Shown here piece by piece: positions 20 through 52,034 of a stretch of DNA of 64,000 nucleotides (position 1 is its first letter; each line of letters starts with the position of its first letter). Source of the DNA: an uncultured virus (IMG/VR IMGVR_UViG_3300037067_011443) (Duplodnaviria; Heunggongvirae; Uroviricota; Caudoviricetes); the IMG/VR virus record IMGVR_UViG_3300037067_011443; one strand, given 5' to 3'. The position numbers were made by a program, and so were the translations under genes. The notes beneath the pieces are model-generated. The model saw only the letters and a list, made by a program, of their open reading frames with translations, was not told where the DNA came from and ran no database searches.

Positions 20-586
20 TTATTTTAATGCTTTAAATTTACTGCAATTTAAATCTTGAATATCTTCTTGTATACGTCCTTCTTTAGCTTTAATAAGTAC
101 ACTACAATTTCGATTATATTTAGCACAACCGATGCAATTAGATTCAAACTCTTCTAATTGAGATATATTTTTAAATATACCTATATAGTCAACAGGTTTT
201 ATTTCAAGTTCTACTCTTGGATTTTCAGTATCATACCAAATTCCTTGAACTCTTTCACATAATTGATTATCATCTACCCATATTTTTGCTGCTTCAGTTA
301 TTGCATCTGCCATACATTTAAAATAATTATTTGCATCCATATCTGTTCTTGGAAAATAAAAAAATGTATCCATATAATAATGTTGAAATTTATTTTCTGA
401 TTTTTTCCAATTTTGTAATCCTGCTTGTTCTATACAATATTTAGTAAAATCTTTCTGATATTTTGTTGCTTCAGGTGTTTTGTAACTCATTGCCATAGGT
501 TTACCATTTTTCATAATAGCTCTATAAGCGAGATAATGATTTACTGAAACGGGAATAGGGGATACTAACTTTAATATTTGAGAGAT
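20..586 (-). CDS. rusA: RusA-like Holliday junction resolvase
   Basis: P-x-S-V-N-x-Y N-terminus, DxxNxxKxxxDA catalytic motif (DANNYFKCMADA), WVDDNQ and PRVELEI. The track ATG at 640 lies inside an inserted mini-element; RBS AAAGGAGG points to an ATC start at 586. Confidence 0.8.
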   Translation of the reverse strand: MSQILKLVSPIPVSVNHYLAYRAIMKNGKPMAMSYKTPEATKYQKDFTKYCIEQAGLQNWKKSENKFQHYYMDTFFYFPRTDMDANNYFKCMADAITEAAKIWVDDNQLCERVQGIWYDTENPRVELEIKPVDYIGIFKNISQLEEFESNCIGCAKYNRNCSVLIKAKEGRIQEDIQDLNCSKFKALK

Positions 587-630
587 AAAATCTCCTCCTT
601 TATTTTGAAATTTTGAGAATAGGGAATAGA

Positions 631-925
631 AAACACCCATCCACGCTATCTGTCAAGTGACTGTAAGGAACTTGTGCAGTATAGTGGCGAATATAAGTAT
701 TGACAATTTATATTAATAATGATAAAATAAACATAGGTTAAGAAACGAGCCTTATTACTATCGTTAATGTAAACATTGGTTTACTTGATAGTGAGAGTCT
801 ATGGATAATTAATTCAATAGCTTGGATGTTGTAATCTATAAGTGATTATATGATGAGAGCCGAGAAACGAATTGATTGATATAGAACCTGCCATACGAAC
901 ATAATGAGTGTGTGCAGAGTTTTAG
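631..925 (+). mobile_element. Non-autonomous IS200/IS605 mini-element (left end + promoter + omegaRNA/right end), no ORF
   Basis: 631-690 is nearly identical to the left end of the element at 51730-51672. ~733-925 aligns along its length with the region 3' of tnpB (48830-48642). Both left ends follow ATAGA. Confidence 0.85.
700..728 (+). promoter_or_regulatory. sigmaA promoter driving the stand-alone omegaRNA
   Basis: TTGACA-N17-TAAAAT with extended -10 TG; predicted start ~735 coincides with the 5' end of the scaffold homology. Confidence 0.8.
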
Positions 926-945
926 GTGAAGGGTGAAATTGAACC
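733..945 (+). ncRNA. Putative TnpB omegaRNA (scaffold 733-925 + ~16-20 nt guide GTGAAGGGTGAAATTG...)
   Basis: Blocks shared with the tnpB-linked copy: GGTT.AGAA.CGAGCC, CGTTAAT, TAGTGA.A.TCT.TGGATA, GGATGTTGTAAT.TATA, ATGAGAGCC, AGAACCTGCC...GTGCAGAG. Confidence 0.7.
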
Positions 946-1689: not shown

Positions 1690-2241
1690 TCACCCTTTCT
1701 TTAAATTAGTAAGCATAAGTAAAACTGAAATAATTCCAAAATTTATTGCATTTAAAATTTGTAAATAATTTAAATATGCACAAGTTATTTGAATTAAATA
1801 AATACTAACATAAATATAAATAAATCCATTACGATAATATTTATCTGTATGTTCTTTGTCTTCTTGTGACAATTTTGGAATAATAGTAATAGATAATATT
1901 GTTATTGCGACTATTATTAAGAATATATTAAATGAATATTGATATGTATTTTTACTTATCCAAGATAAAAAAATTATATAAATTATACTAAATATAGTAC
2001 AAAAATTAATATTAAAATGAATTCCTCCAGAAAACCATCTCATAATATTTAATACTATTATGATAATAATAACTTCTAATAAATAATTATAAAATATACC
2101 AAAACAAATTGTAAATAAAAGAATACATATAATAGATATTATTTGTTGTATTATCATATCTATATAAGAATATTTTTTATCAGACACTATATTTTTTTTA
2201 TTTAAAATATCTGTAATTTTTTCTGAAATTTTATTAACCAT
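1690..2241 (-). CDS. agrB: AgrB-family membrane peptidase
   Basis: Multi-TM protein of ~183 aa with the R-x-F-S-G-G-x-H...C motif (MRWFSGGIHFNINFC), i.e. the catalytic His/Cys. Confidence 0.85.
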   Translation of the reverse strand: MVNKISEKITDILNKKNIVSDKKYSYIDMIIQQIISIICILLFTICFGIFYNYLLEVIIIIIVLNIMRWFSGGIHFNINFCTIFSIIYIIFLSWISKNTYQYSFNIFLIIVAITILSITIIPKLSQEDKEHTDKYYRNGFIYIYVSIYLIQITCAYLNYLQILNAINFGIISVLLMLTNLKKG

Positions 2242-2258
2242 ATTTACCACCAAATTAA

Positions 2259-30640: not shown

Positions 30641-30717
30641 TGGTTGCGAAATGATGGAGTTGAACCATCTATTTTTTGGTTATGAGCCAAATGAGATAAC
30701 CGTTTCTCTAATCCGCA
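30641..30717 (-). tRNA. tRNA with CAT anticodon (Met/fMet-like), CCA encoded
   Basis: Cloverleaf: acceptor TGCGGAT/TTTCGCA, anticodon arm TTTGG-CTCATAA-CCAAA, T arm GATGG-TTCAACT-CCATC, ACCA end. Confidence 0.85.
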
Positions 30718-31815: not shown

Positions 31816-32946
31816 TTAACTTGCTTTATTTAATCCTAAATCTCTTAATCCTTGTGCTAATATATTTTTAGATGCATTTTCATCTCTATCATGAATAGCT
31901 CCACATTCTTCACATACCCATTCTCGTATTGATAATAATTTTACTTTCTTGTTTATTGCTCCACAGTCACTACAAGTTTGACTACTAGCATACCAAGTGT
32001 TGATTTTATGATATGTACGCCCATACCATTTTGCTTTATATTCTAACTTTCTCATAAAATCTGACCAACCTACATCTGCTATTGATTTTGCTAGACAATG
32101 ATTCTTTATCATATTAGAAATTTGTAAATCTTCACTTATTATTACTTGGTTATCATTAATAATTTGTGCTGATAATTTATTTGAAAAATCATTTCTAATA
32201 TTTGATATTTTCTCATGTAATTTAGCTATCTTCTTCGTTTGTTTCTTATAATTATTACTATGTTTTAGCATTTTACATAATTGTCTTTGTAATTTCTTTA
32301 ATTTCTCTTCATACTGATATAATGCTTTAGGTCTTTCTATATGATTACCATTAGTATCTATAAGAAAATCCTTTAAGCCTAAATCAAAGCCAATCATATT
32401 ATTATTTGCATGTAATTGGTTTATTTCAGTATCTACTAATATAGATACAAAATATTTACCACTGGGTACTTGAGATATAGTAGCTGATTTAATTGTACCA
32501 TCAAACTCTCTATGAACTTTACATTTAATCCATTTGAGTTTAGGTAATTTAACTTTATTATTCTCGTAATCAACTTCTATATTATTATTTGTATAATTAG
32601 TAGTGTAAGAATAATTATGGTCATGCTTAGATTTAAACTTAGGGAATCCTGCATGTTCTCTAAAGAATTTCTGATAAGCAGAATCTAAATCATAAATAGA
32701 GTTAGTTAAAGCAAATTTATCTATCTCTTTAAGCCATATAAATTCTGTTTTTAATTCTCTATTACAAAAATTATTACAATCATATTTTGATATAGATTTA
32801 TTTTCTGACTTATATAAATCTATTTTCTTACCAAGATAATGATTATAAACAAATCTGCATGAGCCGAAAGTCTTAGCTATTTGTATTTTCTGTTCATCAT
32901 TTGGATAAAGTCTATATTTAAAAGCTTTTAACATAAATAAATTCAC
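31816..32946 (-). CDS. tnpB: TnpB RNA-guided endonuclease
   Basis: HTH_OrfB N-terminus; RuvC GFDLG, EDL and DRD; Zn finger. Confidence 0.95.
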
Positions 32947-32955
32947 CTCACTTTC

Positions 32956-33357
32956 TTATTTTTCTTTTTGACCTGCAATATATTTTCTAATTTGTTCTTC
33001 TGTATTTTCACTTACAGTAGCTACAAAGTATGAAGGATTCCACATATGACCACCCCATAATTTCTTTTTAAGAATAGGAAATTGCTTCATTAATAGTCTA
33101 GCTGAAACTCCTTTTAATGCTTTTATCATATCTGGTATATAATGTTGTGGAGTACATTCTATAAGTAAATGTATATGGTCTAAATCTCCATTAAGCATTA
33201 CAATTGTAAACTCATTATCTTCTGCAATTTTATATAATAATTCTTTTAAATAATTTTCTACATTTATTGTTAATATTTTATGTCTATATTTCACACACCA
33301 AACTATATGATATTGAATTGAATAAACATAACCACGTCCATGATATACATTTGCCAA
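32956..33357 (-). CDS. tnpA: IS200 Y1 transposase TnpA
   Basis: YHIVWCVKYR, DHIH and YI..Q motifs. Confidence 0.95.
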   Translation of the reverse strand: MANVYHGRGYVYSIQYHIVWCVKYRHKILTINVENYLKELLYKIAEDNEFTIVMLNGDLDHIHLLIECTPQHYIPDMIKALKGVSARLLMKQFPILKKKLWGGHMWNPSYFVATVSENTEEQIRKYIAGQKEK

Positions 33358-48641: not shown

Positions 48642-48830
48642 CTGAACCTCTGCACGAACTATGTTCGGCAGGTTCTGTTTTACTAATATCGTCTTTAGGC
48701 TCTCATTTATTAATATTCACATATTATAAATTACAACATCCTAACCATTGATAATAGTATCCACAGATTTTCACTAACTATATCACTATTGCAATATTAA
48801 CGTTAGCATCTGGCTCGATTCTCAACCAGT
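48642..48830 (-). ncRNA. omegaRNA scaffold 3' of tnpB
   Basis: Non-coding stretch between the tnpB stop and the right end; conserved in the second copy at 733-925. Confidence 0.7.
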
Positions 48831-48846
48831 ATTTTATTTGTTTTTA

Positions 48847-50310
48847 CTACATTCCCATACTACTTACTAATTTATTTTCACTGTTTCTTAATATATCTAT
48901 CTCAATATCATGCAATTCTTTAAATCTATCAAATCTCTCAAAACATAATTCTTTATTAATACTACTTAAATCACCATCTACATTCATAATAAGGAAACTA
49001 CTATATAAATCTCTTTGAATACTAAAACCATCAAACACATTCCATCTTTCAGATAATTCTTTTTTAATAAACATATCTTCAATATGATTATATTGACTGG
49101 CTTTTACATTCCATGTATCAATTTTCTTTAATTCTTTATCAATCCATTTAAGCTTATTATTTAATATAGTCAAAAACATACTTGGTGCTTTATTTGCTAA
49201 ACTCTTACCGAATCTTTTCTTTTTATTAATTCTGCCAGTTTTTTTATTTATAGTAGTATTTTTAGCACGTTTCTGTAACCCTTTATAGTTCATCGTTTCA
49301 ACTTTTATATTATTGCCTAAACTCAATATATGATTAGCTAATTTAATATGAGATTGCTTTCGTATTTCTTTTTGTTTCCTTTGTAATTCCAATAATTCAT
49401 TTTGAGTTTTAATATAATGATTACTCTTAATCCATTTACTTTTATCCTTAGTATTAATAGTACCATTATCATTAAATTTATTAGAATTAGTGGAACGTCT
49501 ACTTCTATCTAATTTCCTTTGTAATACTCTTTTTTCTTTCTCAATATTATTAATCTCTGGTGCTAATTCAAGTAGTTTAACTTCATTTTGTGAACTATAA
49601 GCTATAGTTTGTGTACCTATATCAATACCTACAGTACCTTCATTAATATAATGTTTAATTTCACCAGTTTGTCTATCAATCTTAATAGGTGGTATACCTT
49701 CCATAACTAATTGAACATAATATTTAGTTTTACCTTTAATAATTTCACGTTTGATTCTGCAATATTTAACTCTATTCTGTAAAGCCATTTGAGCATATAT
49801 ATCACTGTTTTTTATAATTAAAGGTATTTTAAGTTTATTGAAGATAACTATATTATCTCTAAATCTAATACCTTGTTTATTATCTGAACTTTCAAATGAG
49901 TACATTTCACCTTTGCGAATAAAATTAACTTTATCAGCTTGACCAAACTTTAATTTATCAATAACTTGCATAGCCCTTAGTTCAAGTTTAATAGTTATAT
50001 GACTACCTAAATCTTTAAATTCATTCACACGAAGGGAAGTGATTAATTTATTTATAGCCGTACCTTTTAATCCAAACTCTTCAGATATTTGTTCAAATAA
50101 TTTGTTACGTTCTTTACCTTTAGGCATTTTACATATTTGAATATATTTTTTACTTTGAATCATAAGATAATATCTTTTAAGCAATTTACCAAGAATAGCA
50201 TTATAATATCTACGAGATAATTCAAAATATTTATCTAAAGCTGAACTATCAGATATTGTAGTTTGTAACGGTAATGTTAAAACAAAACTTGATGTAGTTT
50301 CTCTAGTCAT
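48847..50310 (-). CDS. tnpB: Large TnpB-family nuclease (487 aa, no Zn finger)
   Basis: RuvC GIDIG, VE.M and QRD catalytic triad intact. Confidence 0.85.
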   Translation of the reverse strand: MTRETTSSFVLTLPLQTTISDSSALDKYFELSRRYYNAILGKLLKRYYLMIQSKKYIQICKMPKGKERNKLFEQISEEFGLKGTAINKLITSLRVNEFKDLGSHITIKLELRAMQVIDKLKFGQADKVNFIRKGEMYSFESSDNKQGIRFRDNIVIFNKLKIPLIIKNSDIYAQMALQNRVKYCRIKREIIKGKTKYYVQLVMEGIPPIKIDRQTGEIKHYINEGTVGIDIGTQTIAYSSQNEVKLLELAPEINNIEKEKRVLQRKLDRSRRSTNSNKFNDNGTINTKDKSKWIKSNHYIKTQNELLELQRKQKEIRKQSHIKLANHILSLGNNIKVETMNYKGLQKRAKNTTINKKTGRINKKKRFGKSLANKAPSMFLTILNNKLKWIDKELKKIDTWNVKASQYNHIEDMFIKKELSERWNVFDGFSIQRDLYSSFLIMNVDGDLSSINKELCFERFDRFKELHDIEIDILRNSENKLVSSMGM

Positions 50311-50344
50311 AAATTAATCACCTCTCTTTCTTTATGTAATATTT

Positions 50345-50773
50345 TCAAACCTTCATTTCAACTATCTTGTTAAAGCAATCTTGACATATCCTAATATCAT
50401 CTTCTTCATTCGTTTCACCAATAGCTCTTATGTAAAATACAGGTTGTTTTTCTCTACAGTGAAAACATAGTGAATAATCGGTATCTAATATAATAGAAAT
50501 TATTCCATTTTCCATTTCTAACTCAATCAAATCATTGTTAATCTCAGTTATATCAATAATATTATCAATATCTATACTCATTAAATCTTCACTAACTGAA
50601 TCATCGTCACCTAAAATTAGATACCCTGCGTCATCATCCCATACAAAATTCATATAAGTTTGAGTTAAACATGAACCATCAAAACTTAATTCAATTCTTA
50701 CTTTACCATTATTGAACTTGTCTAAAGCTTGTAATTTGTCTAATAATTCATCATACATATGTAATTCCTCCAC
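50345..50773 (-). CDS. Highly acidic cargo protein with C-terminal CxxC...CxxC
   Basis: Lies inside the IS ends, directly upstream of tnpB in the same orientation. Confidence 0.6.
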   Translation of the reverse strand: MEELHMYDELLDKLQALDKFNNGKVRIELSFDGSCLTQTYMNFVWDDDAGYLILGDDDSVSEDLMSIDIDNIIDITEINNDLIELEMENGIISIILDTDYSLCFHCREKQPVFYIRAIGETNEEDDIRICQDCFNKIVEMKV

Positions 50774-50806
50774 AAAATTTATTAGTAAGTTTTAACTTAC
50801 AATATT

Positions 50807-50835
50807 ATTATAGAGGATAGCTTTACAAAAGTCAA
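50807..50835 (-). promoter_or_regulatory. sigmaA promoter for the cargo gene and tnpB
   Basis: TTGACT-N17-TATAAT. Confidence 0.7.
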
Positions 50836-50864
50836 GATATATTTTTACGAAAGTAACAACATGT

Positions 50865-51107
50865 TTAATAGTTAGTAGTTTTTATATCAATATTGTATAA
50901 TTCTTTTACATCACATTTTAATACATAAGCAACTTTTTCCAATAGTACGATAGTAGGATTACTAGAATTCTCTAATGAAGATAAACTTTGCTTACTCATA
51001 CCAATTTGTTCAGCTATCCATGTTTTAGTAGCTCCTGTCTTTTTACGGTAATCTTCTATTTTTATAGATATGTTGTTTTTAAAATCAATTTCAATTTTTG
51101 TAATCAT
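50865..51107 (-). CDS. Xre/Cro-type HTH regulator
   Basis: IAEQIGMSKQSLSSLE...NPT...L.KVA..L; own promoter TTGACT-N17-TATACT at 51210-51182. Confidence 0.85.
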   Translation of the reverse strand: MITKIEIDFKNNISIKIEDYRKKTGATKTWIAEQIGMSKQSLSSLENSSNPTIVLLEKVAYVLKCDVKELYNIDIKTTNY

Positions 51108-51237
51108 ATATATTTCACTCTCCTCATACCATTATAAACAAAATATATGTAATAGGGAAGATATAAGGTATTACAAAAATTAGTATATCAAATCAATAAC
51201 AAAAAGTCAAATAAAATTATATTAATAACTCATTAAT

Positions 51238-51657
51238 CTATTTACCTTGATTTTCAATATACTTTTTAACAACCTCAAGACTGACTGAGCCAACAGTAGC
51301 AACAAAACAACTTCTGCTCCAAAACTTACTACCCCATAATTTAGTTCTTCTTATATAAGGAAATTCGTCAAATAATCTTATAGCTGTAGTTGATTTAATA
51401 ACTCTAATACATTTCATAATTCCATATCTAGGATTACAATTAATAATCATATGAACATGGTTTTTATCTGTTTCAATTTCTTCAATAATAAAATCATGTG
51501 CTTTAGCTATTTCAAAACATATTTCTTTTAATCTATCTGAAACTTTACCAGTTAATATTTTATGTCTATATTTAGGACAAAATATAACATGATAGCACCA
51601 TCTATAAACCAAATGTTCACTAGAATGAAAATTATCTAATTTATTATATGATTTCAT
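51238..51657 (-). CDS. tnpA: IS200 Y1 transposase TnpA
   Basis: YHVIFCPKYR, HVH and YIENQ motifs. Confidence 0.95.
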   Translation of the reverse strand: MKSYNKLDNFHSSEHLVYRWCYHVIFCPKYRHKILTGKVSDRLKEICFEIAKAHDFIIEEIETDKNHVHMIINCNPRYGIMKCIRVIKSTTAIRLFDEFPYIRRTKLWGSKFWSRSCFVATVGSVSLEVVKKYIENQGK

Positions 51658-52034
51658 AATTACCTCACTAAATCGCCACTATACTGCACAAGTTCCTGCG
51701 TCACTTGGCAGATAGCGTGGCTGGGTGTTTTCTATTTTCATTCTTTGGCATTTTTATTTTCTCCTTATAATATTTGTTATTGTGCAAAATAGATAAATTT
51801 ATATTAATAATTGTATAACTAATATTTGGTACATTTCATAGTTATCACCTCCAATCTAAAGTATAACATAAGTGAAATATGTTGTCAAGTATATTTATAT
51901 TGATAATAGTATATGGTAAAATTATATAATATAGAAAATATTATTCTATATATTTATATACATAGTACCCTATATACAGTTTTTATACTCTTTATTGTAA
52001 ATGTACGCCCCCCGTAACCATATAATCTCTATGC

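Follow-up and report, generated by a model that had tools for sequence, protein, structure and literature searches.

What a stretch of phage DNA without a gene might do between two genes, and which nuclease a guide RNA made from it would serve, are the questions raised by positions 631–925 of the 64,000-nucleotide stretch of DNA analysed here (the window; IMG/VR record IMGVR_UViG_3300037067_011443, an uncultured virus of the Caudoviricetes). An earlier reading of the letters alone, referred to below as the original prediction, had taken this locus for a stand-alone guide-RNA cassette of the transposon nuclease TnpB. Judged by its sequence, the segment is a 295-bp deletion derivative, without an open reading frame (ORF), of an ISCbt2-like insertion sequence (IS) of the IS200/IS605 group, of the type of palindrome-associated transposable elements (PATEs) or miniature inverted-repeat transposable elements (MITEs). 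BLAST against the window gave exactly two significant partners for this region, both inside a related full-length IS200/IS605 element at 48642–51730 on the minus strand. Positions 625–690 match 51736–51673 with 90.9% identity over 66 bp (E 2e-20), a match that takes in the AATAGA common to both copies upstream of their left ends, and positions 725–925 match 48839–48642 with 70.4% identity over 213 columns (E 6e-15). The left end had been described as a copy of that of the 48642–51730 element and the later part as homologous to the 3' region of tnpB; both statements hold, with the second block starting after the tnpB stop codon (48847–49). Because the homology starts past that codon, the region of the TnpB guide RNA (omegaRNA) in this family is pure 3'-untranslated, noncoding sequence; the whole scaffold follows the tnpB stop codon, and a deletion that removes the ORF therefore spares the RNA gene. 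The claim that the 295 bp hold no gene is likewise borne out: the ORFs of at least 30 aa that touch 631–925 are one of 33 aa and that of rusA, which overruns into the element by 10 nt at its N-terminus, with none of at least 60 aa apart from this overrun.

Both ends of an IS200/IS605 element, the left end (LE) and the right end (RE), are present in the mini-element in the correct order and orientation. Directly 5' of the LE stands the target, or transposon-adjacent motif (TAM), ATAGA (626–630, plus strand, like all features in this paragraph; core TAGA at 627–630). TAGA directly precedes the LE in 9 of the 10 family copies read (the mini-element, the full-length element of the window, ISCbt2-b of phage c-st, and the loci here numbered L003, L006 and L008–L011), the LE of L007 being preceded by TATA. 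The LE (631–692) can form a long imperfect hairpin at about 644–686 and is followed by a 35-nt linker, which holds a promoter at 700–728, and by a complete omegaRNA scaffold (733–925), recognized by its fold, by covariation and by a covariance model, R1. The scaffold takes in the subterminal RE hairpin (888–917; sequence and fold), which reads CTGC-CATAC..GTGTG-T-GCAG as against CTGC-CGAAC..GTTCG-T-GCAG in the full-length element, and the transposon end motif TTTAG (921–925), where a C>T change at 923 (position −3) departs from the family consensus TTCAG. This change is unique among the 20 aligned family members, the other 19 all having TTCAG. The flank after the RE begins with GTGAAGGGTGAAATTG, and this segment (926–941) is the predicted guide, placed by analogy with TnpB omegaRNAs, for which a guide length of 16 nt is described (PMC10097598); the window holds no second match to it with up to three mismatches. 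The anatomy given in the original prediction, with left end, promoter, omegaRNA, right end, TAM ATAGA and a guide from GTGAAGG onward, was thus read correctly, down to the end hairpin and the altered end motif. No direct repeats flank the mini-element, that is, there is no target duplication, and of the possible signs of mobility neither a further copy in the window nor an empty site in relatives was found.

The scaffold consists of a P1 hairpin with an 8-nt loop, a long P2 hairpin, a nested three-helix stalk capped by a variable hairpin, and the RE hairpin. Its minimum free energy is −47.7 kcal/mol (z −3.41, 0 of 200 shuffles as good). In single-sequence folds it shares one architecture with the omegaRNA of the full-length element (48642–48830, minus strand, identified by R1; −47.6 kcal/mol, z −3.97) and with that of L362 (−53.0 kcal/mol, z −4.64), a tnpB-linked locus on another viral contig which, at 80.6% identity, is the nearest relative of the omegaRNA of the mini-element; the RE stem of L362 reads CAAAC/GTTTG and carries a long loop, as in the mini-element. 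For the analysis of covariation, 20 family members were aligned and the centroid structure of the mini-element was projected on them; when RNAalifold was applied to the raw alignment, it gave the first two hairpins only, and the remainder comes from single-sequence folds mapped onto the alignment. Over these 20 sequences, 82.2% of the pairing cells can pair, compared with 37–45% when the partners are slid, 34 of 58 pairs are changed on both sides, and the covariation score is 0.355, compared with 0.153 in shuffles (0 of 500 as high). Because a structure mapped from one of the aligned sequences favours that sequence, R1 was built without the mini-element, from 14 sequences that are nearly all tnpB-linked (L001 keeping a tnpB remnant only), with the structure of the full-length copy of the window. 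It scores the mini-element at 133.7 bits (E 6e-25) over its full length, model positions 1–193. Other held-out members score 121–146 bits, the distant copy of Geobacillus virus E3 65 bits, and the omegaRNA of the full-length element, which is in the training set, 168.2 bits. On the mini-element the match runs to 925, the position at which the RE ends in all 20 aligned members, and the scaffold abuts the right end. That the stems are kept despite the divergence, as had been proposed, is supported by the shared fold, the covariation and the score of a model trained without the mini-element.

In addition, the P1 loop (GAAnC) and scaffold positions −7 to −3 form a pseudoknot of 5 bp. It pairs in 100 of 100 cells, and one of its positions is A-U in 9 members, C-G in 4, U-G in 4 and U-A in 3. 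At −3, 19 members have a G-C pair and the mini-element alone has G-U, which RNA tolerates; in the DNA, the change to TTTAG alters the cleavage motif. All 63 of the 63 pairs in the own fold of the mini-element are standard. Rfam 15 has no family for this scaffold class, and a search of 500–1100 gave nothing relevant at E up to 10. The scaffold had been called a diverged copy of the resident one; the homology is real, at 70% identity to the omegaRNA of the full-length element, but the scaffold of the mini-element is not such a copy, the closer relative being that of L362 on another contig. An excess of G-U pairs was considered as a mark of selection on the RNA only and rejected: the mini-element has 10 and family members have 4–11, and a structure derived from the mini-element biases the count.

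The promoter in the linker (700–728, plus strand) is of the sigma-70 type by consensus match, with the −35 element TTGACA at 700–705, TG at 720–721 and the −10 element TAAAAT at 723–728. With its 17-nt spacer it agrees with the consensus at 11 of 12 positions and is the TTGACA-N17-TAAAAT promoter with an extended −10 that had been noticed at the outset. Sites of at least 11/12 number 14 in the window (128 kb of strand), two of which also have the TG and a 17-nt spacer; the second of these adjoins the left end of the full-length element from outside. The expected start of transcription, at about 735, falls at the foot of the predicted omegaRNA stem P1. An ungapped alignment, in which the −35 and −10 elements come to lie on their counterparts, joins the linker to the tnpA–tnpB intergenic regions of the full-length elements L011 (local score 18, shuffles 10.2 ± 1.8, 0 of 1000 as high) and L008 (37 of 1000 shuffles as high). 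The alignment stops at ATAGG/TTAGG, beyond which the relatives have the tnpB ribosome-binding site (RBS) and the mini-element has the first omegaRNA stem. The 700–728 site probably represents the tnpB promoter of the family itself, placed before the RNA when the tnpB ORF was lost, and a case of moderate strength can be made from these alignments that the mini-element derives from a copy already without tnpA, the tnpB ORF of which was then deleted between short ATAGG-like repeats. One sequencing run yielded a 151-nt contig with an LE-like hairpin directly before a sequence like 703–742 (loose end at 698), which is thin evidence in agreement with such a history. Intergenic sequences of IS605 elements have been reported as strong promoters (10.64898/2026.09.24.754181).

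The mini-element is not the only cassette of this kind in its family. OmegaRNA loci were gathered in three ways, by BLAST to phage records, by the LE motif and by an omegaRNA motif, and 22 distinct loci were judged (L381, with too little flank, was left out of the count). tnpB lies upstream in 16 of them, including the frameshifted L282. The six without it, all in phage or viral records, are the mini-element, L003 (Enterocloster phage CB457P1), L007, two in L009, and the L001 type (Clostridioides phage CD1801); because the sampling was non-random, the fraction of 6/22 is indicative only. The deletion joints differ, so these loci arose independently, and half of them (3/6) keep the tnpB-type promoter. 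Like the mini-element, the other five join an LE and/or a promoter to a complete scaffold and RE without tnpB, and they score 118–146 bits with R1, except for L001, which is in the training set. Their joints connect the start of tnpA with the tail of tnpB, the start of tnpB with its own tail, or the LE directly with the RNA. Unlike the mini-element, all of them keep TTCAG. The record L009 (1–970, IMG/VR) holds its two gene-less cassettes at 444–622 and 790–968, about 170 bp apart, the first with the tnpB promoter, RBS and a stub ORF and the second with an LE and a fusion of tnpA start and tnpB tail; the TAGA target of the next element lies about 40 nt past the end of the first cassette. In L362 (489–616) the element is itself inserted in another IS200-type tnpA, the flank after its TTCAG being a Y1 transposase fragment with an HxH motif. 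When an omegaRNA motif with 14 specified bases was sought in genome contigs, the matches listed were mostly chance ones in unrelated high-GC genomes.

Elements of this kind, and the idea that they borrow TnpB in trans, have already been described, and the mini-element is a further example. PATEs encoding omegaRNAs that depend on a TnpB supplied in trans have been published (Meers et al. 2023, PMC10055086), and a PATE-derived RNA is reported to be expressed in Halobacterium (Gomes-Filho et al. 2015, PMC4615843). PATEs as portrayed in these reports resemble the mini-element in the fusion of LE to RE without a protein gene, in the retained TnpB guide-RNA region and in their dependence on TnpA and TnpB in trans. 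Unlike the PATEs portrayed there, the mini-element is phage-borne, has an internal tnpB promoter directly before the scaffold, occurs as a single copy in 64 kb and carries a mutated end motif. Specific to the present case are the fusion of promoter and scaffold, a pseudoknot-bearing scaffold class that is unannotated, and the presence in one phage of the mini-element and an autonomous, cargo-bearing sister copy; these details leave the kind of element unchanged. Among protein-coding relatives, ISCbt2 of Clostridium phage c-st and the copies in phage D-1873, Geobacillus virus E3 and phiCD211 have tnpA and tnpB about 70–71% identical in DNA to those of the window, and they share with the window family the TAGA target, the CTGCC..GTGCAG end hairpins and the TTCAG end. 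Those copies are full-length and protein-coding, and the full copy of the window differs from them by two additional genes between tnpA and tnpB.

The TnpB–omegaRNA complex of ISDra2, as described by Nakagawa et al. (2023, PMC10097598), likewise has a right-end scaffold, a guide derived from the flank and a TAM equal to the transposon target. In that description the last scaffold bases, −5 to −3, form a pseudoknot (−7 to −3 here), the RNA overlaps the 3' end of tnpB (wholly after the stop codon in the window family), the scaffold has 116 nt (about 190 nt here) and the TAM is TTGAT (TAGA here). Unlike ISDra2, the full-length element of the window has a TnpB of 487 aa without zinc-finger cysteines. 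The locus offers a clean phage example for a class that has been described only briefly, one in which a deletion joint sets the element's own promoter at the first stem of the guide RNA. It also brings to light, as a class without an Rfam family, a scaffold of about 190 nt downstream of tnpB, with a covarying terminal pseudoknot and a zinc-finger-less TnpB clade of about 485 aa, and a family in which gene-less guide cassettes recur. As it stands, an expected pattern is confirmed and no new question is opened; if use in trans is true, this would be a natural system for the tolerance of TnpB towards diverged scaffolds and for phage-versus-phage use.

How, then, would the RNA be used? We think it fairly probable that the mini-element is a non-autonomous IS derivative whose omegaRNA is used in trans by a TnpB of its family to retain the element. 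Deletion of the tnpB ORF at the short ATAGG repeat would have joined the tnpB promoter to the first omegaRNA stem, and transcription from about 735 would yield the scaffold followed by the guide (926 onward). A family TnpB made elsewhere would load this RNA, the 487-aa protein of the full-length element, with its intact RuvC D-E-D residues, being the candidate. The complex would cut TAGA followed by GTGAAGGGTGAAATTG, which is the empty site as left after excision by TnpA or as present in a co-infecting relative without the insertion, and recombinational repair would then copy the element back, the published homing or retention mechanism of TnpB, operating here in trans. With an omegaRNA and no protein gene, the anatomy implies that the RNA would depend on a TnpB from outside the mini-element. 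This part of the original prediction is in line with the work of Meers et al. on PATEs, and its naming of the resident 487-aa TnpB as the user is plausible only. This protein is the only candidate partner in the window. It matches the NCBIfam family guided_TnpB (NF040570) with E 3.7e-24 over profile positions 10–387 of 389, and it belongs to a clade of at least 4094 relatives of very uniform length. D230 (GIDIGT), E338 (VETMN) and D434 (QRDLYS) are invariant in 19 aligned relatives, and by the known motifs of TnpB and Cas12 these would be RuvC I–III. Compatibility of the RNA of the mini-element with this protein would be plausible.

Several observations weigh against use of this RNA for retention in trans. 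The score of the 487-aa TnpB, 85.7 bits, is below the NCBIfam curated cut-off of 100; its match to Pfam OrfB_IS605 reaches only 0.0038, and PDB holds no sequence match to it. A CxxC..CxxC zinc finger between RuvC II and III is not found in it: there is no match to OrfB_Zn_ribbon, the cysteines are absent, and the corresponding segment reads ASQYNH, which is invariant in the clade. Cross-loading is no more than plausible, the two scaffolds of the window being only 70% identical and the nearest relative of that of the mini-element lying on another contig. No RNA runs are listed among those carrying the stretch. No joint across the mini-element was found in the three DNA runs, which contain the filled allele only; contigs drop rare variants, and rare excision could thus go unseen in them. 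The mini-element deviates from the family at 3 of 51 invariant or near-invariant columns, most members deviating at none. TnpA acts on single-stranded DNA, as known from the biochemistry of IS608, and both DNA end hairpins of the mini-element are about half as stable as those of the full-length element (LE −5.9 and −10.9 kcal/mol, respectively, with C>T giving a T.G mismatch in the outer stem; RE −4.7 and −9.3 kcal/mol). With weak end hairpins and a mutated end motif, TnpA may rarely or never excise the mini-element, which would leave homing little to do.

These signs of decay also speak for the strongest alternative, to which we give a minor though appreciable probability: that the mini-element is an inert relic, a decaying remnant neither mobilized nor used by TnpB, in which fold and promoter would persist for no other reason than that the deletion is recent. 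The changed near-invariant positions, the end motif among them, and the weakened LE and RE hairpins fit such a fate, as do the single copy in the window and the single allele in the three runs. Truncated relatives of all sizes, down to a stub of about 130 bp with LE and RE in L010 (27.8 bits), fit a continuous series of decay. Against a relic speak the RNA itself, with every pair of its own fold standard and a score in an independent model like that of tnpB-linked members, the changes at paired sites, which keep RNA pairing as A-U or G-U, and the near-consensus promoter exactly at the 5' edge of the scaffold.

The same substitutions can be read as a sign of specialization. In that case the transposition-disabled, promoter-equipped omegaRNA cassette would be a fixed guide in trans that serves the phage: the insertion would mark 'self', and TnpB would cut and destroy, or convert, co-infecting relatives with an empty leader. 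At −3, the unique C>T changes the motif for DNA cleavage while the pseudoknot pair persists as G-U, and in the RE stem the mini-element, compared with L362, has T.G for A-T at one paired position, which is tolerated in RNA and not in DNA. The RNA is thus better preserved than the transposition signals, as an immobilized guide predicts, but with very few substitutions behind it this pattern is suggestive only. The strong dedicated promoter (by consensus match), the intact family TnpB encoded by the phage, and the occurrence of the same filled allele in landfill and groundwater samples from three studies, two of which are possibly the source, would also fit. However, the case has two substitutions as its basis, the G-U count is one that other family members also reach, and there is one such cassette in 64 kb: R1 finds the copy of the full-length element and one mini-copy, with no third copy, and the 'several dispersed guides' that had been imagined are not there. 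Nor was a competing relative with a homologous leader found. Searched for through relatives of RusA, an empty rusA-leader allele was absent from 58 viral and 76 metagenome loci, where L072 is an identical filled allele and the remaining loci have unrelated leaders, and an exact scan for the 20-nt right flank across viral contigs gave 0 matches; with the three runs included, the proposed empty alleles in co-infecting relatives failed to appear. A literature search on the use of TnpB by phages in co-infection found no paper among the hits listed. We regard a fixed guide as improbable; if true, it would stand midway between the homing of transposons and a CRISPR-like system in which a single nuclease works with detached guides to serve the carrier.

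On the minus strand, the element also contains an outward promoter-like site at 678–706 (TTGTCA-17-TATACT, 10/12 consensus positions) that points through the LE toward rusA; its −10 lies in a conserved arm of the LE and its −35 is the reverse of the palindromic TTGACAA, the site being a consensus match alone. That the mini-element is a mobile promoter, which drives rusA from this site (706 to 678) and gives antisense RNA against the upstream operon from the plus-strand promoter, accords with the orientation of the site, with an insertion point about 32 nt from the rusA RBS and with the absence of a terminator-like site after the omegaRNA, but we find it very improbable, as 9–10/12 sites are common in DNA of 25.6% GC (11 in 400–1300, 6.0 ± 2.0 expected) and rusA stands in a long same-strand gene row able to supply read-through.

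Retention of the mini-element by a TnpB in trans thus being the preferred reading, the full-length element 48642–51730 deserves a description of its own. All its genes are on the minus strand: tnpA (51238–51657; Y1_Tnp 6.8e-40, IS200 transposase 1.1e-43), a gene for an 80-aa Cro/C1-type protein with an HTH_3 domain (50865–51107), a 142-aa acidic ORF with CxxC..CxxC and without a family match (50345–50773), tnpB (48847–50310; 487 aa), and the omegaRNA. The two passenger genes fill the region between tnpA and tnpB (50345–51237), where relatives have only a promoter spacer of about 70 nt. No relatives of the 142-aa ORF were found in viral contigs. The HTH protein may match the role that a 2026 preprint gives to Arc repressors in IS605 elements. 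About 130 nt outside the left end, a TTGACA-17-TATACT site at 51860–51888 (minus strand) faces inward and could drive tnpA from the flank. A second IS200/IS605 element, at 31816–33357 on the minus strand, encodes a canonical 376-aa TnpB with CxxC..CxxC (PHROG 506, 2.6e-132) and a TnpA of 133 aa with 40% identity to that of the full-length element. It belongs to a different family, and R1 finds nothing beside it.

The window as a whole, with its GC content of 25.6%, is AT-rich DNA of a large phage. No near-identical phage or plasmid records of it were found. A 17-kb IMG/VR fragment is 100% identical to the window from 9347 on and stops short of the mini-element, and the TnpB of the phage is recorded on a 121-kb contig. 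Of the three runs that carry the stretch, two are from landfill and one is from a groundwater metagenome, and the filled allele is present in all three. The mini-element sits between a minus-strand rusA-like resolvase gene (20–640 as listed, the ORF running over into the LE; Pfam RusA 1.6e-10; PHROG 34 5.5e-24 over residues 22–204) and the gene that comes next in this leftward row. Homology of the rusA-like ORF begins at about residue 22, and in most relatives' loci matches begin at residues 14–23; its RBS, GGAGGAG, lies at about 592–598. The start is apparently an ATC, ATA or ATT codon 7–9 nt after GGAGG (window about 585–600, minus strand; likewise in L073, L074 and L076): the conserved N-terminus I-S/N-(E)-Q-I/V-L-K-L begins at that codon in the window and these three relatives, with no ATG, GTG or TTG nearby.

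Removal of the element had been expected to restore a hairpin like those of other leaders in this genome. The reconstructed empty site has no significant fold compared with shuffles (74 of 300 and 122 of 300 as good; 12 of 300 for a 42-nt core), and the leader motif does not recur elsewhere in the window; this expectation is not supported. The rusA leaders of L074, L077, L081 and L082 have a common motif, GATTTTCGAGA(A/G)TAGAAA, behind which come a GC-rich hairpin and a run of T in a terminator-like arrangement. The foot of this hairpin contains TAGA, the target of the IS family of the mini-element, and in the window a similar ATTTTGAGAATAG adjoins the insertion on the opposite strand. Two genes away from the mini-element, the window encodes a 187-aa membrane protein (1690–2253, minus strand) that matches AgrB (Pfam 2.7e-18; quorum-sensing peptide processing). 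A tRNA gene at 30645–30716 (minus strand; Rfam 51.3 bits) is the sole Rfam family at gathering score in the window.

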